A DNA stretch of 58,260 nucleotides, from the NCBI GenBank assembly GCA_008632985.1, contig QPGO01000314.1, positions 1 to 58,260 of the forward strand, written 5' to 3'. Origin of the DNA: Psammoneis japonica (taxonomy: Eukaryota). The translations under genes and the position numbers were made by a program. Positions 436-54,790 of this stretch are shown one piece after another (positions within the stretch are counted from its first letter, which is position 1; each line of letters opens with the position of its first letter). Below the pieces are notes generated by a model. That model was not told where the DNA came from, did no database searches, and was given only the letters and a program-made list of their open reading frames with translations.

Positions 436-585
436 TCAATGAAAAGCATTGGAGAAAGAAAGGGTTGGCTGTGCTTGCAGCAAGAAAGGCAATGGAGAAA
501 TGGTGGCAGCACAAGAGGACTTTGAACAAACCCAACAAGCAAAAACAGCATCACAAACAAGAAGTGTGCTGACAGAACACTCATC

Positions 586-1702
586 TTGATGCTGCCAGTG
601 CTTCTTGCACACTTGCAGATGAAAAGAATGCCAAAGAAGCTGGCAAAAGGAGGACTCCAAAACCCTCATTGACTGGCGGTTTTGCAGCCACAAATTGATG
701 AGAGATGGTCCACTGTGGTTGCATGTGAGCAAGTGGGGACAATGCCAGCATTGTTGTGCCACCATTTCTGGCATGGGAGTGGTGCAATCTGAGCCTGTGT
801 CTCCTCTGCCAGGACAGTGGCAGATGGATGGCAGTGCAGGAGATGTGTGAAAACAAGTGGCTGTGTTTGGTTGAGAAAATGAGCACCTTTGAAATGAAGC
901 TCTCTGCAAGAGCAAGCTGAGCTTTCTTTTGAAATCATGAGAAAGCAGGGCAGTCATTGATGCTGCCAGTGCTTCTTGCACACTTGCAGATGAAAAGAAT
1001 GCCAAAGAAGCTGGCACAAGGAGGACTCCAAAACCCTCATTGACTGGTGGTTTTGCAGCCACAAATTGATGAGAGATGGTCCACTGTGGTTGCATGTGAG
1101 CAAGTGGGGACAATGCCAGCATTGTTGTGCCACCATTTCTGGCATGGGAGTGGTGCAATCTGAGCCTGTGCCTCCTCTGCCAGGACAGTGGCAGATGGAT
1201 GGCAGTGCAGAAGATGTGTGAAAACAAGTGGCTGTGTTTGGTTGAGAAAATGAGCACCTTTGAAATGAAGCTCTCTGCAAGAGCAAGCTGAGCTTTCTTT
1301 TGAAATCATGAGAAAGCAGGGCAGTCATTGATGCTGCCAGTGCTTCTTGCACACTTGCAGATGAAAAGAATGCCAAAGAAGCTGGCAAAAGGAGGACTCC
1401 AAAACCCTCATTGACTGGTGGTTTTGCAGCCACAAATTGATGAGAGATGGTCCACTGTGGTTGCATGTGAGCAAGTGGGGACAATGCCAGCATTGTTGTG
1501 CCACCATTTCTGGCATGGGAGTGGTGCAATCTGAGCCTGTGCCTCCTCTGCCAGGACAGTGGCAGATGGATGGCAGTGCAGAAGATGTGTGAAAACAAGT
1601 GGCTGTGTTTGGTTGAGAAAATGAGCACCTTTGAAATGAAGCTCTCTGCAAGAGCAAGCTGAGCTTTCTTTTGAAATCATGAGAAAGCAGGGCAGTCATT
1701 GA
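586..1702. repeat. Tandem repeat, 3 x 371 bp, near-identical
   Basis: Units start at 586, 957 and 1328 (TTGATGCTGCCAGTG...), and the ORF track repeats with 371-bp offsets. Copies differ by a handful of substitutions; TTGA microhomology is present at the junctions. Confidence 0.97.
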
Positions 1703-2666
1703 AGGTTCTTTGTCTTTTTGGGAGCTCTGTTGAGAGTCACCATGGCAGCTGCAGGAACTGTGGTGCTTTTCTGCCATGAAAAACAAGCCATCAATGCTTG
1801 CAAGAATTGCCAGTGCACCTTCCCCCCCCCAAGAACATGGTTGCCTGCCACTCTGCCTGTGCGGTGCTGGTCTCCTGCTGCTGCAACTCTGGGGTTGCCA
1901 TCAACTCTCTTTGCAGATGTGTGCAACCAGCAAGCAAGCCTTGTTGCATGGCAAAGCTGCTGCTGATTTGTTTGGCACTTCAGCACCCTTGTCATCAAGA
2001 AGTGGATGCCATCAACTGGAATTTTCAAATGGAGACATTGCTGCAGCAAAAGAAATGCAGTGCTCCAACCCTGGTTCAGTGACCCCCATCAAACAGGAAT
2101 TGCTGGACACAAGCTGCTTGCAACACAAGTCTGTTTTTCATCAAAATGGTGGGGGTGACAGCAGTGGGGAGAAATTGGCCATGCCCAGGTGTTTGAAGTG
2201 TGCCTGCAAATGAAATCATTTGGCTCTCTGACACAGCATCAGGGGAGACATTTTTTGGGTTGTCTGCTTTTTGGAGATGATGCCATGGGTGACAAGCATT
2301 CAAGAGCTGCTCAATTTTTTGATGCTGCCATGAATGTTCACCCTGCATCCAATTTGGCAAGACTTTGGTTGTTGGCCAAGCTGGCTGCAACAAACATTTG
2401 GTGTTTTGGTGTCCCCAAGCAACTGGCAGCTTGGAGCTGCAGCTGCTGCCATCTGGAGCAAGTGGGGGCAACTCCAGTGGAGGCAAAGGCTCCGCATGTT
2501 GCAAGTGTGATTTTTCATCTTTGCAGCGGGGTCCATTGGGTGGCCCAGCCAGTGGAGTTGTCTGCAGAATGCTTTGTTTGGAGTTTCTGCACCAGGACAC
2601 CTCAGCAGCAGCTTGTTGTTCACAGCTGTGTGTGCACACTGTGTGGCAGAACAACAGTGCGAAGAC
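1703..2666. other. Unidentified TpA/CpG-depleted sequence (old repeat or dead gene), interrupted by the Copia insertion and continuing at 9785-11079
   Basis: Composition only. The Copia TSD AAGAG joins the two flanks. No motif recognised. Confidence 0.5.
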
Positions 2667-2671
2667 AAGAG

Positions 2672-2947
2672 TGACAGAAATTGAAGGCAAATGGCAAGAA
2701 TTCAAACAACAACTCCTTGCTGCTGTCTAAATGGCAGATGAGTCTCCGCTCAGAGACCGTTGCAGGAGCCGAAAGACGTGCAAGTCGGTGCAATCGGGCT
2801 GCTGTCATCATTCTTGTGAGCCTTGTGGCTCGAAAGCAAACCACATCGCGCGTGAACGCGCGGAACTAAAGCACACAAAACTGTGCGCGGTAAACTAAAC
2901 AGCGCGCGATGCTTCACGCGCATCCAAATCCTGTTCAAATCCTGTCA
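2672..2947 (-). repeat. 3' LTR of Copia element
   Basis: Direct repeat of 9504-9779 with TG...CA termini; preceded on the minus strand by the purine tract at 2948-2953. Confidence 0.97.
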
Positions 2948-5900
2948 CTCCCCAGTTTGCTTGAGGAGCCACAGAAACAGATTCGACTTCGGATGGAATG
3001 AAGTTCCAGAACATGAGGGGGCGGAGAAGGTCCCAGATTTGGGAGTGACCCCAATGCTTGCTGAGAATGTCAGCAGGGTTGTGGGAGCCTTCGATGAAGT
3101 GGAACTCAAGGCAACCAGAGGCAATTGCCTCACGCACACGGTGAAACGACAGTGCGGTGTGTCGCTTGTGTAACTTGGAGTGCGGGATGGTGGCACTGTC
3201 TACAACCGACTTGTTGTCACCGAACATGTAACTGACATTACGGATTGGGACGCCAAGGCAGCGCAGGGTGATGCGCAGGTCGATGATCTGCTCAACACAG
3301 TTCCTTGCGGCAACAAATTCAGATCCACAGGTTGCAGTCTCCACGGTGGCTTGTTTCTTGGAGAACCAATCAGCCGGGAATTTGTTGAGGAAGTGGAGCA
3401 TTCCCATGACAGAGCGTCCGGTGAGCATGCAATGGCACAAGTTTGCATCGACGCAGTGGGTGGTGGTGACGAACTTGCCAAGGGGCGGTGGAGCGTCCTT
3501 CGGGATCATCTCTTCTGCTTCACCACACACGGAATGCATCCATTCATGGGCCGGAGCAGGGAGATCCGAACAGTCGGGCTCTTCCGTGCGAACGCGGAGA
3601 GCACCGTGTCGCATCTTGGAGAGGTGCCCACAGACGCGTTTGGCACGATCCAAGTGGCCTTGACGGGGCGCAGCTCGGAAGCTAGAGAGTGACATGACAG
3701 CCGTGGCAACGTCAATTCGACCAAGGGACACTGCCCATTGGAGTGAACCAACAAGAGACTGGAACTTGTGAATGCCATCGGGTCCCAGCAGTTCGGAAGT
3801 GTCCAGCTCGGGGTGGTCACCCTTCTCCAGAGGTGACAGGGCGTTGGTGGCAGGTTTCTCCCCAAACAGTCGGGCGCAGCTGTCGACCATGCGCTCGATG
3901 TACTTGCGCGGAGACAGGCACAAGGTTCCGTCGGGGTCCCGGGAAAAGTCGCAACCCAGATGGAACTCAATGGGTCCCGCACCCTTGAGCTTGAACTTGT
4001 GCTTTTCCGTGAGAGTGTCGACGAAAGATTGAGGGTCCTTCATGGCAATGGCGAGGTCATCCACACAAACGAAAAATGTGTTCACAGTGGTCGCCGTTCC
4101 TGCGCATCCAAATGTCGGGTTCGGCGCGGCAGGGGAAGAAGCCTTCAGCTCGCAGGCAGTCGGCGAAGCGCTCGTGCCAGCGGAGACCGGAGCTGCGCAG
4201 TCCATGCAGTGCCTCATGGATGACAAGGATGTGTCCTTCGAGTTTGCCAAATTCGGGTCCAGCTACAATGCAAAGCTTCTCCTTGGTGGTGGCTTCAAGG
4301 TGGGCATTGCCAATGTCTGTGGCCCATGTCTCCAGCTCGTTGAGTTCGGCCAGGAAAATCATCAGCCGAAGGCCACGGAGGGAGACTGCTCCGGAGTAGA
4401 CACTGTCGACAGGTACGTCCGTGAGGTGCCCGTCGGCTACGAGTCGTGCCTTGTGGCGACCGTCGTGTTTCACGTCGCACACCAGGTGCACTCGGATCTT
4501 CTTGTGTCCCGCAGGAGGAGTGGAAGACTTGAAGGGCCCGCAGTCATGGAAGACTTCGTATTCGTCGAGTTGGTCCATCTCGAGATTAGTTGCGTCTCCC
4601 CACTTGCGGTTGCCGTTGCGTTCGTCTAGTGACATGGCGTGTTTGCAGTTCCAGGGAACTTCGCATCCGTGCTTGCAGCGAGGTGCAGTGCGGAAGGAGC
4701 GAAGCTTGGCTTGGTTGGCCATGCGAAATGGCTTCTTTTGGCGCCTCGCGATAGTGCGGAACCGCTTCCAGCCATCCGTGTCGAGGAGTCCGTTCTCTCG
4801 TGCACAGATGGCACAGGTGACGGGGTCGTCCTTGGCGATGATGGCAAGAGGCTCGGACATGATCTCCCCACTTTCCCACCCAAGCATGATGTTGTAGCTT
4901 GAGCCTTTCCAGGTTGGGTCGTGAGGCTTCAGAGGTCCTTCGTGTGACACGATGCGTCGAAATTTCCAAATGGTGGTGTCTTCGTCTTCTTGCTCAATGT
5001 GATTCATGATGTCATTGCAGGCAAGGACTTCCTCGTATTCGTCATTGTTGACAGAGCAGACGAACTTAGTGAGCTCGGGATTGCCGTTCACTTTCCATTC
5101 GTGGTCTTCGACGGCCTTGACGATGCGAGCTCTGTGGCGTTGTCCATCCTCTTGTGGCTGCATGAGGAAGGTGCGTCCAATGATGTCTTGCGGATCGAAA
5201 ACTGGCATCTTGGGTGTCCTGATCTCCCCATCAGGAGAATCGACGGGGTTGTCGTCATGGCAAGATTTGATGATGGGTTCAGGTGGCTCCCCATCAGGAG
5301 GATCAAGACGCAGGTTTCGAACGGCAGGATCGGGGGTGGCAGAGCGAACGTTGGACCGGCAGAGGATCTTCTGAGTCTCGTCAGACAGGATCTTGAAGGT
5401 CATCTGGTGGCCGACGTGCTCAGCAATGCCAACGAAGCGTCCACGCAACTCACGGGATTCGGACGGCCAATCGGAGTCATCGAGGTGGAAGCACACTGGT
5501 TCCCACCAGTGAAAGCGAAGCAATGGGCTGATGTCCGGGGTGGATCCAGTGAGAGTCTCGAGGGGCGTGCGCCAGTGGAGACGTGGGGATGCTGTGTGGT
5601 TGAGCATGAAGCACATGCACATGAGCGCCAGCAGCCATGTGTGGGCGGGCGAACCAAAACGGTCCATGACAGTGTTTGCCATGTGCTTCACGGTCTGGTG
5701 TCGACGCTCGGCAAAGTTTTGGTGTTGCTGGTGAGGCTCACTTTGCCAGCTGGAGATGAAGAGGGCGCGCAGGATCCCGAGCACTTTGTTGCTGATCTCA
5801 ACTTGAGCACGGTCGCCAATGAGTTTGGATGGGGCACCACGTTCACTGATCTGATCCTCGAGTGTGTTGACAAACTCTTTGTCCGTCTCAGTGCCGTAGA

Positions 5901-8564
5901 CGTCAGTGACGGTAGACTCGTGCCAACAACAGTTGGGCGCTGGTGCAACCAGAGTCGACGGCCGGGGTGTCGGCACAAACGGTGTCAGTGGCGACAGGCT
6001 CATTGCGGTGGTGTGCATTAAGGGCGGGGTTGGGTGATTTGCAGGCCTTGCGAAGGTGTGCACCGGCGGGCATGCGGGCGCACTGCGTGGTGCAGTCAAA
6101 AGTGCGACGGACCGCATCAGCAGGTAGGAAGCCAAAGCAAGGCCGAAGAGACTCGAAGGGGGGGTCCTTGGGCTGTACAGTGCGCTCTGGAGGTGGAACG
6201 TCATCGCCCTTGGGGTCAATCGCATGCAGATGACACTCGTAGAACACGTCGTCGTTCGGAATGAGGTGATCATCGAGGGCGGACGCGTGATCGGTAGACA
6301 AGGAAGCGGACAAGATGGTCTCGTTGACAACGACACGGTGACGGCAGTTGCCGCATTCGTCAAATGGGTTGGCAGTGGGATCGTCCTGTGGGTCAGAGAT
6401 CGCGTCGTGCCACTGGTCGTCGTCAGTGACAGAGTGATCGAGGACGGAAGGGTCCCATGTGTCATCACCAGTGAGGATGACATGGGGCAGGGTGTCCCAT
6501 TCGGCGTCAGTGCAAGGTCGCATGGCAACATGAGGCAGGCCAGCCTTGATGTCAATGGGGATGACATAGCCATCAGGAGTGGCAATGCGTTGCAAGCCGT
6601 TGGGCACCTTGACAGAGCGATCGTTGACATCCTGTTTGTGCCATTCGAGCTGGCCGCAGGAATGGATGGTCTTGCCCTTTCCCATGCATGCGCACTGATG
6701 GAGGATGGTGATGACGGGACCACGCTGGGTCTCAATGACGGCACCAGCGGTGACAATGGGGATGTCCACCAATTGATGATCGTCAATGCCCTGAACGTCG
6801 ACTTGGCGAGAGGTGCGTGCGATGACGCGAACGTCGTCGCCAGCAATGCCGCCGTTGGCCCCACGATCGACTAGAGCGCCAGTGCGTGTGGAGCGATGAG
6901 CAGAGGCAGAGCAAATGACATTGTGGTTGTCAACGCGGCGGCAAGTGCGGCCGCCAAGTTCTGTGTCATCTGCAGGAGCAGGCGAGGTAGAGGGAGCGGC
7001 GGATGGGCCCGGTCGACCAGCGTTGGGGGGTTGGTTAGGAGACAACAGGCGTTGCAGATCACCGGGTGGCAGTGGCTTGCGCTTGGTGAGGTGCGCCAGG
7101 ATGGGATTGTCCGAAGTGGCGTCCACATGTGCAGCGGAGTCACCACAGTCAGCAGGAGTCGTGTTGGACAAGTTGACATCACCGTCACTCCCAAGGTGTT
7201 GGTCGTGAAGGTTGGCCGTAACAGACTCATGGCAGTTGCTGGCTCGCGGGTTGCGGGGAGGCGGACGAGAGTGCTCAAGGATGATCGCCTTGGAGGAATC
7301 GGGCAACGAATCCCAGAGCCGTTGGTGGTCGGGAGGGAGACGTCTCCATTGGACACCGGTGAGGCTGGGACCGCGGGTGCAGGCAGCATTGGCTTGAAGG
7401 ACGTCAACGTCGCTGTCAATGTCGTAGAACACATCATCGGACGGTTCCTCGGAGCAGACGTCGTGTGCGCACATGGCGCATCGGGGAGCTCGAGGTGTCG
7501 TCTTGGGTTGAAACGTGCTGTCGTGCTGAGCTGCCGCGGAGAGGAGCAAGCCACAGCATTGATCGCATGTGAGGCTCTTGCCACTCTGCGTGCGATGCTG
7601 ATCAGCTTGGTTCTTGACAGCACGGAGTTCCTCGACAGGGTGCACGGCATTCTCGAGCATGACGCGCTTCTGTCCTTCAGAGAAGTGGTCACTGGCGGGG
7701 ATGAGTGCCTCGCACTTGCGCAACTGATCTTGCCAATGAAGGATGAACCCGTGGGTCGGACCTTTCCAAGTGCCATCACCAAGACGTGCGGTGGTGAGGT
7801 GCGTGAGCAGGGTGGAGGACTCGACAGATGCACGGGTGGAGGCAAGCGCGTGCTCAGACAAGGAGCGGTGGACGGTCTGTGCGTCAGAAGACCCCACATT
7901 TTCGCGAATGAGAGCCTTGCCCTTGTCGGTGAGAAGGATGCGTTCGAAGACGGCGAACATGTGCTTTTGCTGTTCAGCAAAGAGCAGTTTGTCTTCGGGG
8001 CTGGTCGGTTTGTACGACGAGTCTAGAATGCACTCGACGTCTTGGGCACGGGCTTGTGCCACAAGTGAGGTGTGCCAAGTGTGCCACTGCTTGTCGGATT
8101 TGAGAGCCGTGAAAGCGGTGGGATCACGCTTGATGCCTCGCTTGAAGTCTCGCACCGGGTCGCGTGCCTTGGTCGGGTTGGTGACATGTGGGAGGTGCAA
8201 GGGGTGAGCTGCCGATGGACACAGAGGACATGCAGTCCGGGCTGAGACGGCAGGCAAGGAACTCGTCATGCGTGAACAAAGAGGAGTCGTTGGCAACGTC
8301 AAGACCTTTGTGTGCTTTGACAATGTACAGGCCAACTGGTGCTGCTAACATGTTCTTATAACCACGGGGCAAAGGGATTGCATTAGTGCCGTTGTCGCAC
8401 TCAAGCGAGTCGATTTGGGACGGCATGAACGTGAACAGTTCCTGATGCGAGTCCGTGCCGTCTTGGGCCAAAGCCAAACGAAGAGGACTCCCAGCACCTT
8501 GGGCAAGCACGGTTCCAACAACGTGCTCGAAACCATCGGTTTGTTGCTGACGAGTGAGAACCAT
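2948..8564 (-). pseudogene. Copia gag-pol polyprotein, frameshifted and Tyr-depleted
   Basis: Pieced together from ORFs 8124..8594 (ATG at 8564), 5903..8335, 4057..6864 and 2895..4250, with frameshifts near 8200, 5930 and 4075. The catalytic YVDD reads CVDD. Confidence 0.93.
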
Positions 8565-9503
8565 GGTAGACAAAAGTGGTGTCAGGACAATCAATTCTGG
8601 TTGGGAAGCAAAGGCAGACTCGAAACTTGGGTGAGAATGGACTTGACTTGAAATGGACTTGACTTGAAATCTTGAACTGTCTTAAAATCAGAAGTCGCCG
8701 GGCTTTGTCACCCCGTTCGTTGTCAAGTGCTAAACTTCCTGTCCGGTCCGTAGAGTTGTGCCGGCACGTCCGAACCCGCAGCCAGTGGCGCTTTGGGTTG
8801 CTTACGAGCGGAGTAGCGGGTTGTAAACCCCTGCAGGCAAGCTGACTGGAGGTGGACAAGACCCCCGAACCGTTCTCATTTTATGTCGGTTGGATTTCCC
8901 GATCAGGCTGGCCAGTTGACGCAGGCGCCAGGTGCTGTGGACGAACGAACAAACGCGGGAAAGCACCCTCGCCCCAACGCAGGCTGCAATCACGGCTGCT
9001 TGCTCTCACAGTCGTCCTCGTGGACCTGGTGGAACTGTGGAGCACCAGCAGTCCGGGGCAGATCAGGCACAATGGACTCGGTGTGCTTGCAGAGTGGCAG
9101 CAAAACCGCAGTCCGAAGAGTGGGCACAGGTTCTTGGCCGTGAAGACATGTGTGCACATGTGTGTCTTCAGCGAGGGAGATCCTTGAACATGCAGGGTTC
9201 TTGACCGTTGACCGATGAATGGGCACACCAAGGGATGAGGATCAAGGACAGACTTGGATGTGACCGTTGAATGCATGTCTTCAACGATCAAAGGCAGTGT
9301 GATCAATCCAGATGTCCAGCGGCAAGGAGACTTGACGGTGACGTTAACTTCCTGCCGATGCCCTGGTGTTGAATGCGCGCAGACTTGCCGATGCATGCAG
9401 GACACACACGGAGGTCCACGCAGAATTGAAGTGGCATCGTTGGCAAATCAACGACGACGATGGCGGTTGCTCAATGGGTTGACAATGAGCAAGACTGTCA
9501 ATC

Positions 9504-9779
9504 TGACAGAAATTGAAGGCAAATGGCAAGAATTCAAACAACAACTCCTTGCTGCTGTCTAAATGGCAGATGAGTCTCCGCTCAGAGACCGTTGCAGGAG
9601 CCGAAAGACGTGCAAGTCGGCACAATCGGGCTGCTGTTGTTGTTCTTGTGAGCCTTGTGGCTCGAAAGCAAACTGCATCGCGCGTGAACGCGCGGAACTA
9701 AAGCACACAAAACTGTGCGCGGTAAACTGAACAGCGTGCGATGCTTCGCGCGCATCCAAATCCTGTTCAAATCCTGTCA
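9504..9779 (-). repeat. 5' LTR of Copia element
   Basis: Direct repeat of 2672-2947, followed by TSD AAGAG. The internal flank on the minus strand reads GATTGACAGTC..., not a canonical TGG-type PBS. Confidence 0.97.
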
Positions 9780-11079
9780 AAGAGAGTTTTCACTTTTGTT
9801 CAACGTTGACAAGGAGTCAACAAGGTCAAATTTTTTTGATGTGGCAGAGGCAATGTTTGGCTGCTCTGTTTGTTTGAGTGCAGAGAAACACATCTTGTTG
9901 AGCTGTGGGTCAGATTCTGTGGCAAGGGTGGTGGCAATGGAGTGACAGATTGCACCATTTTCCATTTGCCAACGGAAATTCTTTTTTTGAGGAAATGGAT
10001 TCCTTTTCCCAGAGCACACCATTTCTTGCTGTGCATCTTTTGTTTCTTTTGCCTCCAGCTGCAATGGCAAATGGCAGTGCTTGTCAGTCCTTTTGCGGGG
10101 CCCACACAATGTAAAATGCAGAAAAAGAGAAAGACAATTGCTGTGAGTGATGATGATCCTTTGTTTGCCATCAGCAAGCTGACCGCTGAAGGCAAGGACA
10201 GCGTTTTTGTGCAAGGGCAAGAGACGCCAATGCCACAATGAAGCAAAACAGCAAACTGGTGCAAAAAATGCGCGCACTTCTGAGCAGAGGAGCTGTTTGC
10301 CAAGTTGGCTTAAATTGGGTGCCAGTGCAATTGACAACCTGGATCTACAAAAGCAGTTGGCTGTCCCATGTCACACAATTTGCTTTGATGTCATTGGCAT
10401 GATGCGCGTGTGATGTGGCAAATGCAACAGCAAACAGCGCAATCTGTCACTCTGATGCACACCCCCCCCCTTGTTTTGGCATTGCAGCAAGATTCTCCAA
10501 GATTCCCTGGGATCTCACCACCTTTTGATGGGCTCTTCCACTGGAAGTGTGAGCTCCCGGGGAGCCACCGTGGGCGCCACTTTGTCGTGCATGTGCTGCA
10601 GACATGCACACAAATTTGTGCGTTGGCGCTTCCCCTCTCACACCTTTCTGTGCCTGCTGCATGCCAGGACATGCAGAGCCACGTGCACCCCCACGCAAAA
10701 CATTGCTCTGGCGTTGTGTCAACACACAAGCAACAGAGCATCTTTGAAGATGGCCAAGGCAAGTGCAGAAGCTTGCAAGGCCAACAAATGTGGTGGGCAC
10801 AATTGTGCGTGACCATGCACGCAACACAGTGTGGGTTGTTTGTCACTGTTGTGCCTCGTCACAACAAATGCGAGCCACACGAGTCATCTGGAGCAAAGGC
10901 CAAGGCCACAGCAGAGCCCTGTGTGCTCAAAACAAATGTGGCTGACTCGCTGTTGTTGTCCACATTTTCCCTCTCCTGTCACAAGGGGCTGCTTTGTGTC
11001 AGCACATCAGCCGTGGTCATTGCCAGCAGTGAGTGCAGCAAGCTGGCGGTCGTGGGGGGTGGGGAGGGCAAAAGCGCCC

Positions 11080-19990: not shown

Positions 19991-20049
19991 AACCCAAATT
20001 CATTTTTTAAGGTGCTGCCACACTTCTGCTCTGCAACTCTGGCAAACAA

Positions 20050-44076: not shown

Positions 44077-44688
44077 CGATGAAACCAAAAAAATGCGCAA
44101 GAAGTGTGCAACGATTTTGAGGCCGTTGCGATCGACAGAGCACCCAAGTTCACATTGACAACGCTCAAGGGCGGTGTCGAAATGCTCGTGCAAAAGAGGT
44201 TTGGTTGTGTGGGGAGGTTTCAGAGGCACCACACAATGACGGGTTCCAATCCCAGGTGGGACTCCGTGTGACATTGGGCCCGTAGACTTCTACGTGCGAG
44301 CTCTGTGTTAAAATTATGAATTAATAAAAACACAAATGATCGCCAACAGAAAAAGAGGCAATTTTACGAACGTATCTCCTCCTTCACACTTATAGTACAT
44401 GAATAATAGTTTGCATGGGTATATTCTACAGACATTAAAGAATATACCCAGCGTTTTTTCATTGTCATAAATGTTGAAAATAGAAAGCCTTGGCTTCGCA
44501 AAATAGGAAGTATGAAACAATTTCGTAGAATATCACACGTAGCCATCTACGTGCGCGACATACGGCGCGATCCAAAAAACTATTGATGTCACAGTTCAGC
44601 ACTACGAGGTCCCACCTAGAGCTGGAACACGTCCAATGGCAGAGGTCAACACAGGCTCACAACCTGTTAGAGACTCCAATGTGTCGCG
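44077..44688 (-). mobile_element. Second copy of the Copia-type LTR/PBS remnant; host of a MITE and the Ngaro element; resumes at 50362-50385
   Basis: Homologous to 16185-16410. The minus strand reads ...CTCTAACA|GGTTGTGAGCC at 44653-44671. Confidence 0.6.
44238..44633. mobile_element. MITE (396 bp), GAC...GTC TIR family, subtype B, TpA-rich
   Basis: TIRs GACGGGTTCCAATCCCAGGTGGGAC / GTCCCACCTAGAGCTGGAACACGTC and TSD CAAT (44234-37, 44634-37). The corresponding empty site is visible at ~16340. Confidence 0.93.
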
Positions 44689-45725
44689 CGGCTGTTACCG
44701 CTTTTCTTGTTTGTCCTCGGCAGAGTGATTCAAGCCAGGAGACAAGACACAACAGGACCAAATCTAACAGGCAGGAGTGGAGATGGCTTTGCTGGCACTG
44801 CAGGAAGCCCTGCTCCCAAACCCAAGCTGGACGGCAGGCCAGAGGGTGGGAGAGGCGGGGGCGATTGACTGTCTGGAGCCCGGCTTGCTGTTGTTGGGAG
44901 AAGAGTCATTCTGACTCCCGTGCAACGTGCAGCACTTTCAACGGGAAGGAATTGGGAGTCCCTCTTTGCGGATCTCACGAGGACAGCGGCTGTCACTGTT
45001 TTTCTCGTTTGTCCTCAGCAGAGTGATTCAAGCTGGGAGACAAGACACAATGGGACCAAATCCAACAGGCAGGAGTGGAGATGGCTTCACCAGCACTGCA
45101 GGAAGCCCTGCTCCCAAACCCAAGCTGGACAGCAGGCCACCAGCACCACCCACAATGGCGCGGCAATGCAGTGGAGGACTGTGACTTGGGCGGAGGGTGG
45201 GCTGCATCTGGTGCCGGGGTGGTGACCAGTGGCCGCCGACGCAAGGATCCAATGGAGAACAGCGATCGGGATGGGTTTTACCTGGTCTGGCGGAGGATCC
45301 TCTTTCTTGCAGTGACGGATTTGTCAGGTGAGATTAAAATCCATTTGGCCTTGGGGTGTTTTGTGTGGGTCTGGGGCCCCATTGCAGAAAACATTTGGCC
45401 AACCGACCGCGCGGCATCTTCAGCGGTGCGTGCTCGGACGGGATGGCCACATGGGGCGATTTGGCCAGTTCTGCATCGGTGCATGAAGCCACAAGCGCCA
45501 AGATTTGTTCTGGGGACAAACAGTGTTAAAATGTTGCAAAGAGGCAGCAGTGGTCAGTGATTGAAGGCGGGAGGCATCGTCAGCAGCGGTGTTCAACGGC
45601 CCGGCAGATGATCGTGCAACGTTGGTGATGGGTGGCATGGCATGGGAGCTTGGCTCGGGGCTTGGCAGTGGTGGAAGAGCCTTGTGTTGCCAGTGCATTG
45701 TGCCTGAACTGTCAGTGTGCTGCAG

Positions 45726-46075
45726 GATGGGTTCCAGTCCTGGGTGGGACTCCGTGTGACATTGGGCCCGCAGAATTCTACGTGCAAGCTCCGCAGCAAA
45801 TTTACACTGAAATGAAAACATGTGTGATTGCCAACAGAAAAAGAGGCAATTTTATGAACGCATCTCCTCCTTCATGCTTGGAGCACATCATTGACAGTTT
45901 GCCCGGGTGTGTTCTTCAGACATTGAAGAACATGCCCAGCGCATTTTTGTTCTTGCAAATGTTGAAAATGGCCCGGGTGTGTGTTCTTCAGACATTAAGA
46001 ACACACCCAGCACATTTTCATTCTCATGAATGTTGAAAATAGAAAGCCTTTGGCTTTGCAAACAGGGAGCATGAA
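45726..46075. mobile_element. MITE subtype B, TpA-depleted copy with internal ~70-bp duplication; right end lies in the gap
   Basis: Aligns with 44238-44517; duplication at 45901-45970 / 45971-46040. Inserted between the RT and RNase H regions of the Ngaro element. Confidence 0.88.
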
Positions 46076-46493
46076 NNNNNNNNNNNNNNNNNNNNNNNNN
46101 NNNNNNNNNNNNNNNNNNNNNNNNNNNNNNNNNNNNNNNNNNNNNNNNNNNNNNNNNNNNNNNNNNNNNNNNNNNNNNNNNNNNNNNNNNNNNNNNNNNN
46201 NNNNNNNNNNNNNNNNNNNNNNNNNNNNNNNNNNNNNNNNNNNNNNNNNNNNNNNNNNNNNNNNNNNNNNNNNNNNNNNNNNNNNNNNNNNNNNNNNNNN
46301 NNNNNNNNNNNNNNNNNNNNNNNNNNNNNNNNNNNNNNNNNNNNNNNNNNNNNNNNNNNNNNNNNNNNNNNNNNNNNNNNNNNNNNNNNNNNNNNNNNNN
46401 NNNNNNNNNNNNNNNNNNNNNNNNNNNNNNNNNNNNNNNNNNNNNNNNNNNNNNNNNNNNNNNNNNNNNNNNNNNNNNNNNNNNNNNNNNNNN
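46076..46493. other. Assembly gap (N run)
   Basis: Run of n. Confidence 1.
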
Positions 46494-48325
46494 GCAAGCT
46501 CTTGGATGCGCACAGGACAATCTTTGATGGTTGTGGTGAGATCGCAAAATTCATCCAAGACACTGTGCACGGTGGGAGTCAAGCAGACATGGGAGTTGGG
46601 CAGGGTGTGATGGAGAGCATCTTGCAGCTCAGAGAAAAGGCCTTGGGAGCCAGGAGTGGCAAGCAAGAGTGAACGGAGTTCTCCAAGCAACTTGTGGCAG
46701 TTGGTGGCGGCAGCACATTGATGGGTTCAGGGGAAGTCCTGGGTGAGAGTGTCGCACAGTCAACCTGAACGTCGGGTGGTGAGACGCAGTGTCACAGCTT
46801 TGGTGTCGATGAGCCATCCGAGGACCTCTTTTTGTGTGGACCAGGAGGCGTCACTTTTGCAAAGCTTCTTGACAGAGATCGGTTTGGTGTGGCGAGGTGA
46901 GTCATCTGGGGCCAAGGGACAAAAAATGTCGTCAATTGCAGCCATCAGAGTGTGACGCACATTCAAACAGGCAGCGCGTGAGCCCTGTGGCCCCAATGTA
47001 ATCATCAACATGTGTCTCCACATGAGCAAGGTGATGGTGGTGTCGATGTCCAAGGTGTGGGTCAGGGATGTTGGGAATTGGGACGGTGATGGTGTCGGGC
47101 AGCGGTGGCGGTGTTGGCCGCAACGGCAGGCAGCGACTCATGGCAGCACGCTCCAAACAATGAGGTGGTGCCTGGCAGTTGCAAAGGAGGAGTTGGTTGG
47201 TGATGTCAGCACCAGTTTTGGTGGTGGTGCTAAAGGCAGGTGGCAAACTCTTCCATCCCATTGGCAACTTGGCAGGGATGGCGACAAGTGGTGGCTCGCC
47301 TGGCAGACTGGGGAAGGCAATGGCCAGGACCTGTGCATGGTCCAGTGCCAACGTCATGCAGTGGAATCCGTCGGACATGTCAAAGGCTCTCGGTCCTGAG
47401 TCCCCGAGCTGGGACCATTGCCAATGACCCATTTGGTCGTCCAATGCTCCGTGGCCCAAGTGAAGAGTGCATCTTGCTCTGCTTGACTGTGGCCTCCACG
47501 ATTGGCGCGGGTGTTGCAATTGGAGTTGCGCTGTCCCTTTAGATGGAAAGGGAGGCACCACGGATTCCCACTGGCATCCATCGGCAGGGCAATGTTGGCC
47601 GCAGCACACCTGTCCTTGACTGCATGGGAGCGGACCCCCGGCCTGGCGCGAATCTCATCGAATCGCGTGTCGCAGCGCTCATTGCAAATCAACGTGTTGG
47701 CACCTGGGCTTGCCACTCTTGGGGGAGTGGTAGGTTGCTGTGGTGCAGCAGGCGGTTGGGGTGCTGCCAGTCAAGCTTGGTGCGGCAAGACGGCCGCAGG
47801 CAAGTCGCACCTCCAATGCATGGCACCTTTGGCAGCCAGGCAAACAGCGGGTTGTCCTTCAAAGGGCAGGGGTTGGTCAGTGCGTGCCTGGTCAGTGAAC
47901 CACTGCCCGATCTCTGTCTGGGCCCAACGTTGGAGGTCTGCCGGCAAAGTGGGGTAGCGCACCATTTGTCGGGCCATCTCGTTGGCACACAAACATCCAT
48001 CGCACAGCATTGTTGTCCCAGCCAAGTCATGACCACATGCTGGGTTCCTAAACTGGTGGCGAGGATGACCTGGTGACCGCTGCAGCAGGAGTGTTGGGCT
48101 CCCTGCATTGTGGTGGCGACCCTGGCTTCATCGGGTGCCTCCAGGATCTGAGTGTCCGCTGCACTGGGTGCGTTGTCTCCACCATGGATTTGATGGCAGA
48201 GTGCGTTGCGGTGCACAATTTGCTCTTCTTGCTTGGGCGTCGTGAGACCAAAGATGAAGGGATTGATCCCTTGGGCAAGGTCGTCTTGATTGTGTCCAGC
48301 AAAATTCTTTTGGAGCAACTTGACA

Positions 48326-48714
48326 GACGCGTTCCAGGTCCAGGTGGGACCTTGCACTGCTCAACTGTGACATCGATGGTTTTTTGAATAGCGTCGTATG
48401 TTGCACACGTACATTTCTACGTGATTTTGGCGAAATTTTGCATCATTTTATGGCACAATTGTCAGGCGATCCATTCAACAACTTTTGACATTTTTTTCTT
48501 CTACGCCATTCTCGAGTGTCTTAAGAATGGTGCAGGGCAGGCATGTTGTCCAAAACTTCAAGTACGAACAGAGATGTGTGTGCTGCAAACTTGGCTGTTT
48601 GTTTCATGCTGAAGACAAATGTGTCCATCAACCAGAGTACGAACTGCAGAGCTCGCACGTAGAATTCTGCGGGGCAAATGTCACAAAAAGTCCCACCCAG
48701 GACTGGAACCCGTC
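48326..48714. mobile_element. MITE subtype A inserted in the Ngaro gag region
   Basis: TIRs GACGCGTTCCAGGTCCAGGTGGGAC / GTCCCACCCAGGACTGGAACCCGTC and TSD GACA (48322-25, 48715-18). Confidence 0.93.
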
Positions 48715-51375
48715 GACACCAAATTTGCTGACACGGGCACATTGAAGTGCACCTCAAGGGCCTCACGTTGTTCGTTGACGTTGCCTTGGACAGAGGCCAC
48801 CCATCCGGGCTTGAGCGCAGATGCCAAGTCGGCCCACATCTGCGGCAATTGGGTCTCTTGGCAGATCTGACACAGGCGCATGATGATGAGCGTGGCTTGC
48901 ACACCAAAAGCCTCCCGCGGGGTCTTGCCGCGTGCGCCAGCTTGTGAGCGTGCCTGCGCATCCAACCTCTGCTGACGTTGCTCTGCCGTGAGATTGTCAA
49001 TGGCAGCAATCACAGGCTGAAAATGCTGCAATGTTTGCCCTTGTTGCCCCACACGGTTGGGCAAATCCCGATTGACCTTCCTCTCAAAGTGCTGAGTGAG
49101 GGATTTGTTCAGTGGCTGGGGCAGGTGGGCCAGTCCCTGATCACAGCCGAGGCTGCATGATCCTGCTGGGCAGCTGCACATGCCACCTTAAGGAAATCTA
49201 ACAAGGGGCGGCACTCGTTGACTTGATTTGCCGCAGTCGCCGCACCATGGATTCGTGCGAAGGCCGGTTTGGGCGTCAGTGCAGTCAAGAGTGGAAGATC
49301 AACATGACTGAAAGGCACGAACATGCAATTGCGTGTCCGCACCTCTGCTGCATTGGCAGTCTGATTGGCAACATGGGGGTGAAACCCCTCTGGGTCTGCC
49401 GTGATGGCGGCCAAAATCGCGGCATCATCCAACATGTGTGCACCATGGGGTGCAAGATTCATCATCTCCACCGGGAACTTGGTGCTGGTTGATGCTGGTT
49501 GACCGCCAAATCACCTGCAATGCCGCAGTTGCACCCATCCCAGGGTTGGGCTTGTCCCACCACCGTTGTGGGGTGTGCAGACAGCCTGTGCAAGATCTGG
49601 ACACGTCCGGGCTTGTTGGCTTGGCCTGGTGAACGACAGTGCATGGCAATCATTGGCATGTCGTGCTCTGATGCGGCAGCAATCCTGGCGCACAAAGCTT
49701 GAGGATTGAACCTTGACGGTCCATTGATGCCAGCTGCAAAGTCCATCATGGCTTCTTGGTGCTGCTGTCCCTGGTGCGGGTCACAGTTGGCTGCTCCGCA
49801 GCAGTCGGCGTGCATCAGCATTGCCCACGGTTGCGGCGGCACTGGCGCCACATTGGGTCCCTGTGCAGCCGGTGCCTGACCAGGAGCTTGAGGTGGTGCC
49901 AGTTGCTGTTGCCCAACGGGTGGTTGCTGCACTGGTTGATTCATGGGGGGTTGCTGTCCTTGCAGTGGTGGTGGCTGTGGCTGCTGCAGCCCTGGAGCAG
50001 GCTGCCATGGCTGTTGGCCCACCGGTGGTGCCGGATGTGCGGGTGCGGTGGTGGTGCGCTCTGCTGAGCATTTGCATTTCCCAGGTCCGGTGGAGTGCCA
50101 GGATTCAACATGATGTTTTGAATTGGTTGCACTCCTGCTTGCATGAAGAAAGGATGAGGAAAAGTCAACAACAGCGGCGGAGGTCTCCTGCATCGAACTC
50201 AACAGCGATTGGCTGTCTAGAGCCCGGCTTGCTGTTGTTGTTCTCGAAAGAAGGAAAAACAAACGAAAGCCGGAGAAGAGTCATTCTGACTCCCGTGCAA
50301 CGTACGGCACTTTCAAAGGGAAGGAATTGGGAACCCCTCTTTGCGGATCTCACGAGGACAGGGAGTGACCTCTTCCACTGACACAGATGGCCTGTTCCAG
50401 CTCCAGGTGATCCATGCGGGTTCGATTCCCATCATTTGACAATTTGTGCATTTGGCGCATTGAACTTTTTCAAAATCCGTTTTTTGCCAAATCAAAGGGC
50501 AAGTGCACACTTTGCATGCATTTTTGGGTGTGCAATTGCCTTTCGATTTTCGAAAGAATCAAAATTGAAGGAGTTTGATGCGCTGAACTGTGCAGAAAAT
50601 TGGCCTCTCGTGTGATGAAAAGCGGATCACCTGAGCTGGAACATGCCAGATGTCACAAGATCGAAAGAAGTCAAAGGAACGACCAGTCAAAAAACAAAGG
50701 ATGAGCATGCCATTGGACAATGTGACGACCACAAATGCGCATTGCGAGGTTGACAATTCACCCCACACTCTGTCACACATTGCCCGCGCTCATGTCACAA
50801 CAAGAAAATGCTGCACATTGGAGCACAGACCAAAAAAGAAGGTGAAACAAAAGAAACACAGTTGGAGGACAACAACAAAAATGAACCATTGCACCACTTC
50901 AGTCGATGAAACATTTTGTGACATGTGCGGCACTCGTCAAAACCTCCCCAATGTGTGCACATGATGTGGGCAAATGAGATGAATCTTGTGCACAACTTGC
51001 CCCATGGAAAGACGCGACCATGACGGTGCAAACGACGAAAAAAGGGTCTGTAAGTCGTTCTCCATTTTTGATTTTTGTGCAACTGGCCAGATTTAGCTCA
51101 GCACTGAAAAATGTAACGATCCGTGTGATGATGGAGGTCTTTCTCTTCCTCTTCTTCCCGCACCAATTACAGACCTCCCAAGCTGGGAGTGGATGGGCGG
51201 GCCGGGAGCGATAATGACTGTTTTCTGGCTTTTTGAATCAGTGATCTGATGGAAGGACAGGCCGAGTGCGACCATTGTATTTTTATTTTTTCCCTCGCGG
51301 TCCGCCATGGTGGTGTCATAGCTTTTCCGTTGCCGCTGTCACCGTCGTCCCTGAACAACAAAACGGTATCATACC

Positions 51376-52593
51376 ATGGCAGAGTGCTACTCAATCGAAA
51401 AGGCCGCTGATGGATCTGCAGGTCAAAAGAGGTACAGGAAAAGCACCACATTGACCTTTCAGAACGCCTGCAGCATCAGAAAGCTGCTCTTGCAGAGGCT
51501 GAACGGCGTGTAGAAAAGCTGCGTCATGACATTATCAAGACAGAGGCAGAGCTGAGAAAAGCAACATTACTCTCCCCTTCAGAAGCGCCAGTACAGACGT
51601 GTTGGGGAGTCCGGATATCGTGGTGAATGAGATCTTTGCGTTTCTCTCCATACCTGACCTCGGGCGTTCTGCCGCTGTCTGTCGCGAGTGGACAAGTTAT
51701 GCTCGTAAGGAACATCTCTGGCGAACTCATGCAATGAAAAAGTGGCCGCATACTCCGTCCTCTGCCATATCCAACTTTTACTGCTATTGCGAAGTCAGAT
51801 TACTCAAAAAAAACTTTCGAAGGGGAGCTCATTTATCCACATTACAACAAGCAGGTGAATAGCAAGTATGCCGACGACGAGTACTACATTCTCTATGAGC
51901 TACCGCGTATTATGGAAGATACCGAGGATGGACAACAGAGACCTGTATCTCGATGTGTAAAGTTGGACGAGTCTCTTGAAATCCTTGAACAGAATCATTA
52001 TGAGGAGTCGATCTGTAACTGCCGCAATCGTTGAGCACACAAGTCGGCTTTTTTACGTCTGCCGCTTGAATTGATTTGCAGCTCCTTTCCAGTACGTGAA
52101 CTTCTCCAGAGATTCAGGGAACTCAAGATATCCATTCTTCGGAGATCAGACAGCAAAATGGCGCTGATAATGGACCCTGGCAGCCAACGATATTGCAACG
52201 GATGGGATTGATGACTGGCATCCTGAAGATGTCATCACTCAGGGACACTACCAGTACCTGAGAGATATACCAAACTTTTTAGACACGAGACACAAAACAT
52301 CTATTGGAGACAGGTTGCCACTTGGATTACGAGCCAAAGCTGTTTTGCAGTTTCCCTCTGACCGCGAATTCGTGGGAGGACGTCCCGTCGCCGAGCTTGG
52401 AGTTGATACGACGTATACTTGGCCTCATCGAGATGATCTCTTACAGGTGCGCTTCGAGTCACTGATTCTTGGTTTTGATCTGCATGATCAATCCAGGGAG
52501 GAGAGTTATTTTTATGAGACACACATGACTCCAGCCTATGATAAGGCGTGTCTAAATCAATTCCTCGAAATGGCTGGTGTTGAATGGCATTGA
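51376..52593 (+). pseudogene. F-box protein gene, apparently frameshifted
   Basis: Coiled-coil segment (ERLQHQKAALAEAERRVEKL) and F-box-like PDIVVNEIFAFLSIPDLGRSAAVCREWTSYARKEHLWR lie in different frames, with downstream stops. Boundaries approximate; introns not excluded. Confidence 0.65.
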
Positions 52594-53040
52594 TGGGTTT
52601 TTTTAATTCAAACTTCATCTTGATGCAGTTATTGAACCTAAGCCCGGCAGTGATGAAGACACTTGATTTCCGCAATTCTCTGCATAACACTAGTAGGTTG
52701 AAACCAAGTCCAATATATGCCTTTACATGAGTGCGTTTTAGCAAAGCTACCTACAGTACAATGATTTCCATTTCGATTCCCTGCTAGTCGTGCATTGGTA
52801 GAGCTTTTCCGTCGCCATAACACAATTTTAGTAGAACTTGTGCCAGCCCAAAGGAAAATCTAAGTATAACATTTGTCAGATAAACGTTGATGTCATTCGT
52901 GTCAAATTCCAAGACAGACCACAAGAAACAATTCATCAAAATTCAAGCGTGAAGGGGAGTGGAAGAGTCGTCCTCGCAACACTGCCCAAAGCTGATCTTG
53001 TGGCCAGCTTGCAAAGTTAAATCTAGAAAGCATTTAAAAG

Positions 53041-54790
53041 GATGATGATTGTTGTTGTTGTTCAAAAATGCCAGATGAAGGAGAATGTTGCATGTTTATT
53101 GCCACAGGCTTCCACCCAATCAAAATCAGCCCATCGGCTCTTGGAAAGACCCAAATGCTTCAAAGGAGAGTGGTCAGCCAATGTGCAAAGGCAACGCAAT
53201 GCCAGTCATCTTTTTTGTAGAGTTGCACTCTCCATCCCACCCACAACAATCTTTGATGATGCAACACACTGCATTGCAACCAAACAATCCTCCCAGCTAA
53301 AATGGTCAGAAGGGGGGGGGCGCAGATGGGCTTCACCTGATGCTTGGTGGCCTGCAGCTCAGCTTGTGCCATTTCTTCAAGCACTTCCCCAAAGCCAGTG
53401 AGGAGCTGTGCCACACCCCTGTCTGACATGGTTTGTGTCTTCATTTGTGGTCAATGGCTTTGCAAGACATTCAGTCATGATGTGCCATTGGTGGAAACTG
53501 TCCAAAGTGAGCCCATCTTGGCCATTTGTGAAGAAAGTGATGTGAGGTTGCAGCCAGCAAAGCATGTGTGTGGCACCATTTCCCAGAGCATGGCAAGCAG
53601 CCAAAAACTTTGGAGCTTCAAAAAATGCCAAAGGAGCTTGGGGGCTGCTCCCCTGTCTTGACAATCAAAAGTGTCTTGGGTTTCTGGGTCACAGAAGTCA
53701 AACCTCCTGAGGCAACAAATGCTTGGAGGTGAGAAGGTTTTACATCATTTTTCAAAAGACAGGTCACTTGCTTCATAAATGAGATTGTCCAACATGTCAT
53801 CTGACAATCCTTCTGTGTGACTTTCAACAGCATTGTGGAGTGCATCCAGATTCTTGTTGATCTCATGCAGAGCACATGCTGGAAATGACTCATCAGCTTG
53901 TGGTTCAAAATTTTAAACAAGGAGAAAGCATTGGTGGTGTGCTCACTGAAATCATCAGCACCTGTGGGGTCAACCATCTCAACCAAGATTGGAGCAGCAG
54001 GTTTGGCCGCAACAGTGTCCCTCTCAGCCATTGAAGCAGGAGCAAAGGATGCTGAAATGGCTGCATGGCCAGCAACTCCTCAACTTGCCACATGGGTCTT
54101 GGCAATCCAGCCAATGAGGCAACAGGGTGCAAGTCCAAAAAGTCAAGGTCACTTGGTTCTTCAGCCAGGTCATGGAGCACTTGTGTTCCATCTTCTTGAC
54201 CTTGTCCAACTTCACACACGTGAACCTTGTGGTTGAAGAACTCAGATGCCATCTTGGATGCTCAAGTCAAAACAACAGAGCCTGTGTCAACTGACAGTGC
54301 ATGGCCCATCTGCACAATCTTGACCAGATGCAGAGCTTTTGTCATGAGCTCAGTGCAATTCTTGCAAGGGCAGGACTCAAGCAATGGTGCCTTGAGCTTG
54401 TCCTTGGCAGACTCAACATCAACAAGAGCACTTGCATTGCAAGTGTCCAGAGCGGCCATGAACAATGCTGACCCTTGATGATCCTTGAAGTTCTTCATGT
54501 GGTTGAACTTCACTTGGATCTTCTTGCAGAATGTTTCCTTGATGCGAGACTTGACAAACAGTCAAGAGAGACTGATGTTGTCCATCTCATGCTGATCACA
54601 GCCTTTGTCACCAGAAGCCTTGGTGCAAGTCTTGTGCTCCTTCTCAAGGTCACAGACAGCAGCAATGATGGCATGAAGACAACTGAATGGGGGGGGGCAC
54701 ACAACCTTGCTGTTAGATCGCTTGAAGCAGCAGAAGTTTTGCTGCCTGTTCAATTCCACGAGGTCTCAGATGGCTGCTGCCGCCCCAGAG
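53041..54790 (-). mobile_element. TpA/CpG-depleted retroelement relic, gag-like
   Basis: Abrupt composition change at ~53040. GSALFMAALDTCNAS...LESCPCKN resembles diatom LTR-element gag segments as I recall them; unverified. Confidence 0.45.

Follow-up and report, generated by a model that had tools for sequence, protein, structure and literature searches.

Transposon and repeat DNA in the stretch analyzed here, the 58,260 nucleotides of contig QPGO01000314.1 of Psammoneis japonica (hereafter the window), has very probably undergone a DNA-level hypermutation that turns the dinucleotide TpA into TpG or CpA by an A:T to G:C transition, which can hit either of its two base pairs. Over its full length the window has a TpA observed/expected ratio (O/E) of 0.23, with CpA at 1.59 and TpG at 1.54, and a two-state segmentation of TpA density across it delimits six low-TpA blocks (table 1). 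Pooled, these blocks (40,066 non-N bases) contain 173 TpA, against 2,406 expected from base composition (O/E 0.07) and 1,282 if the O/E of the host regions, 0.533, applied to them. Taken singly they have TpA O/E values of 0.03-0.11, compared with 0.39-0.82 in the stretches between, and in each of them TpG and CpA are both raised (1.5-1.8) at a GC content of 0.48-0.55. The blocks coincide with a Copia-type retrotransposon, a Gypsy-type remnant and various repeats, whereas the host genes in this one 58-kb window have a TpA O/E of about 0.5. An earlier note on this DNA, made from the letters alone, had claimed just such a near-absence of TpA from transposable elements (TEs) next to ordinary values in host genes and in pseudogenes unrelated to TEs. 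The segmentation edges fall within a few hundred bases of those it had proposed, at about 436-11850, 14530-28600, 37900-41300, 43000-44230, 44690-51000 and 53040-54790. The FG-GAP-repeat paralogue P3, which is split over two frames and may be a pseudogene or an intron-bearing gene, has normal TpA. Relaxed selection alone does not, therefore, erase TpA.

Conserved Tyrosine Codons and the Direction of Change

The clearest record of the process is found in the Copia element of block 1, which lies inside older TpA-free sequence and belongs to a very high-copy family. Its polyprotein, now split over four frames, was aligned with 50 intact full-length Copia relatives (Tyr 3.9%, Cys 1.0%, His 3.5%), a column being counted as conserved if at least 80% of them agree. 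The 36 conserved Tyr columns read Cys 18, His 9, Tyr 6 and Phe 3 in the window copy, with codons TGY and CAY; most conserved tyrosines (27 of 36) have thus become Cys or His. Retention of Tyr is 17%, in comparison with 600 of 650 columns (92%) for the other conserved residues (P = 4e-25). Even the catalytic tyrosine of the reverse transcriptase YVDD motif, invariant in all 50 relatives, has been lost, the motif now reading CVDD. Conserved Asn, Lys, Phe and Ile are retained at 88-95% (29 of 33 columns for Lys, 18 of 19 for Asn), indicating that AA, AT and TT contexts have been spared. In the Gypsy remnant of block 2 none of the three conserved Tyr columns still reads Tyr (two have His, one Cys), while Arg has become Gln at 4 of its 10 conserved Arg columns, a sign of CpG decay on top of the TpA loss.

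The depletion is mutational in origin, the elements having contained TpA while they were active. Metagenome relatives of the Copia element show a TpA O/E of 0.49-1.01 at 63 of 63 loci, in a set that is biased toward intact copies, because the search patterns contained Tyr, and that is consequently silent on how frequent erasure is elsewhere. Among the 40 of 258 variant sites listed from reads, other copies of the Copia family have TA where the window copy has CA or TG at six sites (shares 0.14-0.97), and adjacent CA/TG swaps between copies occur at nine. In two repeat pairs within the window, TA sites of the normal copy read CA or TG in the erased one at 14 of 19 and 11 of 16 positions. The conversion of TA to TG or CA that the earlier note had read from the sequence is hence borne out by the Tyr columns, by a host gene compared with its paralogues (see below), by read copies that still have TA and by relatives with normal TpA; active elements that are themselves TpA-free, which it had named as one of the outcomes fatal to its reading, are not what the 63 relatives show. 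Equally sound was its claim that Tyr codons are destroyed across unrelated elements, since the Copia and Gypsy superfamilies as well as repeats with no recognized domain are hit, catalytic tyrosine included.

Related proteins in public records carry the same mark. Of the 150 top-ranking Gypsy cluster representatives, six have less than 1% Tyr (one of 699 aa has none), and 1 of 120 near-length Copia matches, P0517, is Tyr-poor, its conserved Tyr columns reading Cys 8, His 6, Tyr 3 and Phe 3; control proteins in the same comparison retain conserved Tyr at 26 of 28 and 18 of 19 columns. Another Copia relative, P0501 (ENA record, 46,825-bp contig), is partly affected, with Arg 5, Cys 6 and His 6 at conserved Tyr columns. 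A change of Tyr to Arg corresponds to TA becoming CG, so both bases of the step have been hit there, an outcome absent at the 36 columns of the window copy. The Tyr-free relatives come from NCBI, ENA and JGI records, and may or may not represent other species.

Context of the Changes and Influence of Neighboring Bases

The specificity of the change was measured in four pairs of homologous stretches, each comprising one erased and one non-erased member. Transitions are present at 36 of the 101 bases lying in TpA, equivalent to ~70% of the dinucleotides given that one hit per step suffices, versus 33 of the 397 other A or T bases (Fisher P = 1e-10); for CpG bases the figure is 11 of 81. A to G and T to C changes are, as had been predicted, enriched at TpA over other contexts.

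Neighboring bases strongly influence which TpA steps persist. In the low blocks, compared with normal regions, survivors number 0 versus 49 for ATAT, 0 versus 56 for ATAC, 4 versus 63 for GTAT and 1 versus 34 for CTAT; the corresponding counts are 28 and 25 for TTAA, 20 and 16 for CTAA, 20 and 21 for TTAG, and 12 and 19 for CTAG. The pooled low-block/normal ratios of trinucleotides are 0.03 for TAT, 0.09 for TAC, 0.17 for TAG and 0.22 for TAA. A fairer control sets the 53 TpA surviving in the window Copia against the 17,991 TpA of its 63 intact relatives: relative to the mean, survival is 0-0.46 in the four classes having a 5' A (that is, a 3' T) and 1.07-2.4 in the remainder (chi-square on the +1 base, P = 5e-6). 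The order of susceptibility is ATA/TAT > GTA/TAC > CTA/TAG and TTA/TAA. A purine precedes 7 of the 9 His outcomes and 7 of the 18 Cys outcomes of the Copia element, which fits this rule without reaching significance (P = 0.10).

The occurrence of both Cys and His outcomes signifies action on both strands, their ratio of 18:9 not being significantly off 1:1 (P = 0.12). Long one-strand runs were not seen in 500-bp windows, the variance of the z score for TG/CA imbalance being 1.52 in the low blocks and 1.95 in normal regions. These strand data bear on editing at the RNA stage. Fossil footprints of ADAR (A-to-I) and APOBEC3 (C-to-U) in animal retroelements are likewise clustered transitions produced by host deaminases, and ADAR prefers a 5' U. 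Such footprints are confined to one strand and stem from editing of RNA or cDNA prior to integration, whereas here both strands are affected, together with repeats that are not retroelements and adjoining host DNA. ADARs are, moreover, known only from animals. An ADAR-like hyperediting of retrotransposon RNA, fixed via reverse transcription, would produce A to G on the sense strand only, in conflict with the sense T to C (His 9) found beside A to G (Cys 18), with the differences between the LTRs (long terminal repeats) of one insertion and with the involvement of noncoding repeats and of a host gene end. We thus consider it highly improbable, even if the clearest targets here are retroelements and even if the 5' U preference of ADAR matches TpA, a point made in the Discussion of a preprint on the chlorarachniophyte Bigelowiella natans (Mettrop et al. 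2026, bioRxiv 10.64898/2026.01.13.699255).

Relation to CpG Decay

The two LTRs of the Copia element differ at 11 positions, every one of which is a YpR (pyrimidine-purine) step, with no difference elsewhere in the 276 bases. They include four adjacent CA/TG swaps, one TA/TG and two CG/TG or CG/CA. Each LTR still has 20 CpG and only three or four TpA, which makes double hits at CpG improbable; each swap is best explained by a single ancestral TA that was resolved in two ways. The event is thereby placed at the DNA level, after the duplication of the LTRs, and evidently outpaced by far both CpG decay and background substitution. Consistent with this, CpG O/E is ~0.8-1.0 within the young Copia, where TpA is 0.07-0.30, and among the low blocks it varies from 0.18 to 0.68; it follows that TpA loss is independent of CpG loss, and faster.

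Decay by deamination of 5-methylcytosine (5mC) shares with the present pattern the excess of TpG and CpA, and CpG decay is indeed present in the older blocks (CpG O/E 0.18-0.31). It starts from CpG, however, and cannot remove TpA or turn Tyr into Cys or His, and in the young Copia nearly all TpA is gone while CpG is almost intact. The earlier note had rightly set aside both this process and fungal repeat-induced point mutation (RIP), the latter for its opposite polarity.

CpG decay could contribute indirectly, through error-prone repair synthesis in heterochromatin by a polymerase of the eta type, recruited for instance by mismatch repair of deaminated 5mC. The error hotspot of polymerase eta is the A of WA motifs, and the strong CpG decay of several blocks (CpG O/E 0.18-0.31; Arg to Gln in the Gypsy remnant) would supply the G:T mismatches. 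Against this, the young Copia has lost most of its TpA with CpG O/E still at ~0.8-1.0, AA contexts are spared (Lys 29/33 and Asn 18/19 columns), all 11 LTR differences fall at YpR steps, and patch synthesis does not saturate a single dinucleotide while leaving nearly everything else as it was. Such repair is, in our view, decidedly improbable as the source of the pattern.

Edges, Spill into Host DNA and an Untouched Island

The process probably acts in place on integrated DNA, with sharp edges and a spill of no more than ~300 bases, and in episodes that leave later insertions untouched. The first indication comes from P1, a host FG-GAP-repeat gene whose last 250 bases adjoin block 2. At the eight sites between 14200 and 14600 where both its paralogues P2 and P3 have TA, P1 has CA at four, TA at two and other dinucleotides at two; upstream (12700-14200), none of 11 such sites has become CA or TG (Fisher P = 0.018). 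All four polarized changes are T to C on the sense strand, and the conserved VYVF motif of the protein has become VHAF. The second indication is a pair of direct repeats at the edge of block 2, 87% alike and 110 bases apart, of which only the copy next to the block is erased: of 16 sites that read TA in the partner, eight are CA in this copy, three are TG and five have kept TA. Spill into adjoining host-derived DNA amounts to ~270-300 bases. Taken together, the erased end of P1 and the erasure of one repeat copy favor a process that works on resident DNA and spreads a short way.

Between blocks 4 and 5 lies an unmutated island, a 480-bp member of a repeat family with ordinary TpA (table 1). 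Its relative at 45726-45969 is erased, reading CA at seven, TG at seven, TA at three and other dinucleotides at two of the TA sites of the island. Position alone does not, therefore, decide which DNA is hit. The simplest reading is that the island was inserted after an episode of activity, local protection being the alternative; Rfam gave no match and a tRNA scan no gene over the window that would explain it.

The same features may be considered in the light of editing before integration, by which extrachromosomal retrotransposon cDNA would be hit by an APOBEC-like enzyme with adenine as its target and elements would arrive already erased. Very sharp edges (within 110 bases at 28883-28994) and an unmutated family member within an erased region are expected from such a route, and editing of double-stranded cDNA would also yield differing TG and CA among copies and between LTRs. 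Yet erasure reaches the 3' end of host gene P1 and one copy of a local direct repeat, and it extends to the tandem repeat of block 1 and to sequences without features of retroelements. Moreover, the mutations of B. natans arose in single-copy integrated DNA in the course of an experiment (Mettrop et al. 2026). Editing of cDNA is consequently an improbable explanation in comparison with action on resident DNA, though less so for the LTR elements themselves.

Table 1. Low-TpA blocks, elements, host genes and other features of the window.
Feature	Position	Strand	Remarks
Block 1	1-12033		TpA O/E 0.11, CpG 0.68; tandem repeat, nested Copia, high-copy repeat at ~10.7-12.0 kb
Tandem repeat	586-1702		371-bp unit x3, 99.3% alike; 0 TpA and 0-1 CpG per unit
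Target-site duplication	2667-2671 and 9780-9784		AAGAG, 5 bp, perfect
Copia-type LTR retrotransposon	2672-9779	-	nested in block 1
Copia LTRs	2672-2947 and 9504-9779		276 bp, 96% alike, ends TG..CA
Active-site Tyr codon (YVDD) of Copia	4065-4067	-	now TGT (Cys)
FG-GAP-repeat gene P1	12568-14454	+	TpA normal to ~14200
Block 2	13963-28789		TpA O/E 0.05, CpG 0.25; degraded Gypsy and unclassified sequence; erased state to ~28883
Spread zone at 3' end of P1	14200-14460	+	T to C at ancestral TpA sites
Gypsy-type RT/RNase H remnant	17861-20039	+	RVT_1 18674-19099, RT_RNaseH 19103-19933
Erased direct-repeat copy	28618-28883	+	
Unmutated direct-repeat copy	28994-29260	+	sharp edge of block 2
Control host region	28790-37744		TpA O/E 0.54; holds P2, HOOK, V-ATPase subunit c and P3
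FG-GAP paralogue P2	29360-31231	+	
HOOK	31728-33392	-	
V-ATPase subunit c	34095-34616	+	
FG-GAP paralogue P3	~35640-37680	-	two frames, ORFs (open reading frames) 36444-37151 and 37099-37683
Block 3	37745-41455		TpA O/E 0.03, CpG 0.31; without recognized TE domain
Block 4	42270-44282		TpA O/E 0.08; includes N run 42668-42969
Unmutated island	44283-44765		33 TpA, O/E 0.82
Block 5	44766-51050		TpA O/E 0.09, CpG 0.57; repeat pieces in common with 11080-11480; N run 46076-46493
Block 6	53098-55014		TpA O/E 0.06, CpG 0.18

Reads behind the Assembled Bases

The assembled letters were compared, over positions 1-20000, with Logan contigs of three public runs (X1-X3), which derive from one sample that is probably the source of the assembly itself; depth is here the summed figure of the contigs and not a copy number. 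In eight low-TpA stretches at single-copy depth (~31-33) the contigs contain no other letter, namely over 1673-2698, 9752-11107, 11441-12632, 14359-14848, 14936-15467, 15535-16163, 16246-17669 and 18048-19048. The check on read data that had been called for thus comes out, at the level of contigs, in favor of the assembled bases, the contigs having been built independently though probably from the same data. The pattern might still be put down to an artefact of assembly or base calling, or to element families inherently poor in TpA, in view of the N gaps in the window and the single sample behind the reads. The exact agreement of the rebuilt contigs with single-copy erased stretches contradicts the former; as to the latter, TpA is normal among relatives, whose Tyr content is 3-4.5%, TA persists in further copies within the same genome, and Tyr-free, Cys/His-rich ORFs are found in other public records (Copia 1/120, Gypsy 6/150). 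The probability that no hypermutation took place is, we judge, close to negligible.

The summed contig depth is 67,000-165,000 in the Copia interior, and 15,000-165,000 over 2669-10005 and 10673-12006 taken together, versus ~32 for single-copy sequence. The Copia family and the neighboring repeat at 10673-12006 must therefore be extremely abundant in the genome. Copies of the family differ at 211 transition places and 32 transversion places in run X1, transitions at CpG being included in the former.

Two further observations concern this family. One contig joins position 2822 to 9657, a form resembling a solo LTR; and 12 of the 53 TpA that survive in the window Copia are clustered within ~560 bases (8326-8882), near its 5' (gag) end.

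Weighing the Evidence

Several points weigh against the reading of an in-place, TpA-specific hypermutation of transposon and repeat DNA. Recognizable TE domains are present in two of the six blocks only, in the Copia ORFs and in the Gypsy remnant, and four blocks have none: when 110 ORFs that measure 110 aa or more and lie in the low blocks but not in Copia were searched against Pfam, just two gave a TE match, RVT_1 and RT_RNaseH, both belonging to the one Gypsy remnant. Several pieces of the domain-less blocks occur again elsewhere in the window. The CA/TG swaps can have CpG ancestors, and other copies have CG at six sites where the window copy reads TG or CA (among the 40 of 258 listed). For action in place the numbers are small, namely the difference between 4 of 8 and 0 of 11 sites (P = 0.018) together with a single pair of direct repeats, and the unmutated island inside an erased region requires an additional assumption, whether of timing or of protection. 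A processive enzyme working on a single strand would be expected to leave long-range strand runs, and there are none; the observed preference for a 3' T is also unlike that known for ADAR2 or for the anticodons of ADAT2/3. Finally, the read evidence all comes from contigs of one sample, probably the assembly's own source, and from a single window neither the rate nor the age of the process, nor any activity today, can be read off.

Candidate Chemistry

Because TpA is self-complementary (A to G being T to C on the other strand), sequence cannot tell apart a deaminase, a modification of thymine and a repair polymerase. Our first choice, held tentatively, is adenine deamination by an enzyme of the TadA/ADAT2 type: a nuclear polynucleotide deaminase would turn adenine into hypoxanthine in 5'-T-A-3', on either strand. 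Evolved TadA base editors act on DNA, and the tRNA target of this family, A34, always follows U33, which would explain the strict requirement for a 5' T. Deamination of adenine beside a 5' U or T, as carried out by TadA and ADAT2-ADAT3, would give TpG from TpA; the 3' T preference found here, on the other hand, differs from their anticodon context. The deaminase itself is thus put forward as a mechanistic lead only, that is, as a candidate enzyme.

A different chemistry would have the thymine of 5'-TpA-3' modified in silenced DNA, for example by a dioxygenase of the TET/JBP type producing 5-hydroxymethyluracil or 5-formyluracil, and then pairing with G. Owing to the self-complementarity of TpA, every count of context and direction presented above fits this route equally well, the preferred context becoming a purine 5' of the T (ATA > GTA). 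In dinoflagellate DNA, 5-hydroxymethyluracil is concentrated at TpA and TpC; base J occurs at TpA in the telomere repeats of kinetoplastids, and 5-formyluracil yields A:T to G:C transitions. A literature search on modified thymine returned one paper, a review on dinoflagellates, the indexed entry of which reports none for diatoms. The sole experimental report favors a deaminase, by homology only (Mettrop et al. 2026). We regard the thymine route as unlikely, and adenine deamination remains our working choice.

A defence role, and targeting through TE chromatin, may also be attributed to the process, as the earlier note did. One may speculate further that diatoms possess a dedicated DNA editing defence specific to sequence context. 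In it an adenine deaminase or a thymine oxidase would be guided to silenced repeats, prefer ATA/TAT, and clear TpA from freshly silenced transposons before ordinary mutations had time to build up; its activity would be episodic and might, like RIP, be linked to the sexual cycle. Because the signature is also present in a chlorarachniophyte and in environmental records, the system would be ancient and widespread in the SAR group (Stramenopiles, Alveolata and Rhizaria). This picture as a whole is conceivable rather than probable. If true, it would constitute a second RIP-like pathway in eukaryotes, chemically opposite to the first, with an enzyme that could be found by phylogenetic profiling.

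Comparison with Bigelowiella natans and with RIP

The earlier note knew of no description of such a process. This does not hold, since the same hypermutation, A to G and T to C at TpA only, has been measured in B. natans (Mettrop et al. 2026). In mutation-accumulation lines of this organism, two integrated viral regions, of NCLDV (nucleocytoplasmic large DNA virus) and virophage type, mutate at ~6e-7 per site per generation, 1000x the background, and 230 of the 231 mutations in these hypermutable regions are A to G or T to C, all at TpA and in some lines only. Among the TpA-poor coding sequences of B. natans, reverse transcriptase and DDE domains are over-represented. Its authors propose an ADAT2-like DNA adenine deaminase, and cite reports of activity on DNA for amphioxus BjADAT2 and Trypanosoma TbADAT2 (bioRxiv 10.64898/2026.01.13.699255).

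The window resembles B. natans in several respects: transitions are confined to TpA and give TpG and CpA; selfish or foreign DNA is affected while the rest of the genome, here within one window, is ordinary; and low TpA with high CpA and TpG remains as the long-term footprint of an apparently episodic activity (Mettrop et al. 2026). It differs in its host, a diatom (Stramenopiles) instead of a chlorarachniophyte (Rhizaria), and in its targets, which are LTR retrotransposons and repeats instead of giant-virus and virophage inserts. Erasure is also near saturation here (O/E 0.03-0.11), whereas the NCLDV region of B. natans has a rho of 0.45. The rate has been measured in B. natans; in the window there is an indirect pointer only, the 11 YpR differences between the LTRs without any other in 276 bases and with most of the inferred TpA gone. 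Beyond what the accessible preprint text documents, the window adds the neighbor hierarchy with ATA/TAT first, the sharp edges with short spill and the precedence over CpG decay. An 'inverse RIP' is therefore already in print, but in that preprint alone, and the present case extends it to a second phylum, to retrotransposon targets and to saturation; the effect of neighboring bases is new here, as far as we have seen. The words 'diatom' and 'stramenopile' are absent from the accessible text of the preprint (Mettrop et al. 2026), and full-text literature searches found no description of TpA-erasing hypermutation in diatoms.

Like the RIP of ascomycetes, the process inactivates repeats in place by dinucleotide-specific transitions at the DNA level, with a slight leak into neighboring sequence. 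The chemical outcome is the reverse: RIP changes C to T mainly at CpA, thereby creating TpA and stop codons, whereas here TpA is destroyed, TAA and TAG vanish and GC rises. The blocks accordingly lack the RIP signature of TpA excess and AT enrichment, having TpA O/E 0.07, CpA 1.6-1.8 and GC 0.48-0.55. Another difference lies in the trigger. RIP mutates both duplicates, whereas here only the TE-adjacent copy of the 87%-alike direct repeats is erased, so that duplication as such does not seem to set off the process.

Consequences for Elements, Annotation and Host Genes

Since TAA and TAG are converted to TGA, CAA, TGG or CAG, erased blocks become open in all frames. With strands pooled, the low blocks contain 1,853 TGA in comparison with 135 TAA and 103 TAG, and stop-to-stop ORFs that reach 150 aa or more number 85 in the window. 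The elements are therefore inactivated by missense at Tyr and other TA-containing codons, and not by nonsense as in RIP. Gene callers report the spurious long ORFs of erased blocks, in any of six frames, as Tyr-free proteins. In addition, the process raises local GC and can damage genes that adjoin transposons, as in the case of P1.

A weak Pfam match to Senescence_reg at 40946-41467 on the forward strand (E 9e-5; 23.8 bits, cut-off 22) lies in an ORF straddling the edge of block 3; since every frame of erased DNA is open, the match is probably spurious.

Targeted A:T to G:C hypermutation of DNA was not known in eukaryotes before a single 2026 preprint on one chlorarachniophyte (Mettrop et al. 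2026). The present evidence implies that the process spans at least two SAR phyla and that, far from being an oddity of two viral inserts, it would be among the major ways in which transposons are inactivated. Diatoms dominate ecologically, and several of them can be manipulated genetically; the enzyme behind the footprint, which may be a natural editor of adenine in DNA, could be found by comparing genomes with and without that footprint. The neighbor hierarchy, the sharp edges and the precedence over CpG decay provide extra handles on the process.

Host Genes and Taxonomic Position

The window is, by its protein matches, nuclear DNA of a diatom (Bacillariophyta). The best matches of HOOK are ~50% identical, those with names being from the diatoms Seminavis, Nitzschia, Cylindrotheca, Epithemia and Synedra, and the nearest ESM-Atlas cluster consists mostly of Bacillariophyta.

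P1, P2 and P3 are three diverged FG-GAP-repeat paralogues with 72-77% DNA identity, located within 25 kb. The first 358 bases of block 1 retain five TpA. Finally, a sequence of 270-380 bp is present three times beside host genes (53-429, 31377-31645 and 34353-34732), with 72-78% identity and one copy inverted. All three copies have ordinary TpA, and the sequence may be either a module, intergenic or regulatory, that these sites have in common, or a small element of old date.

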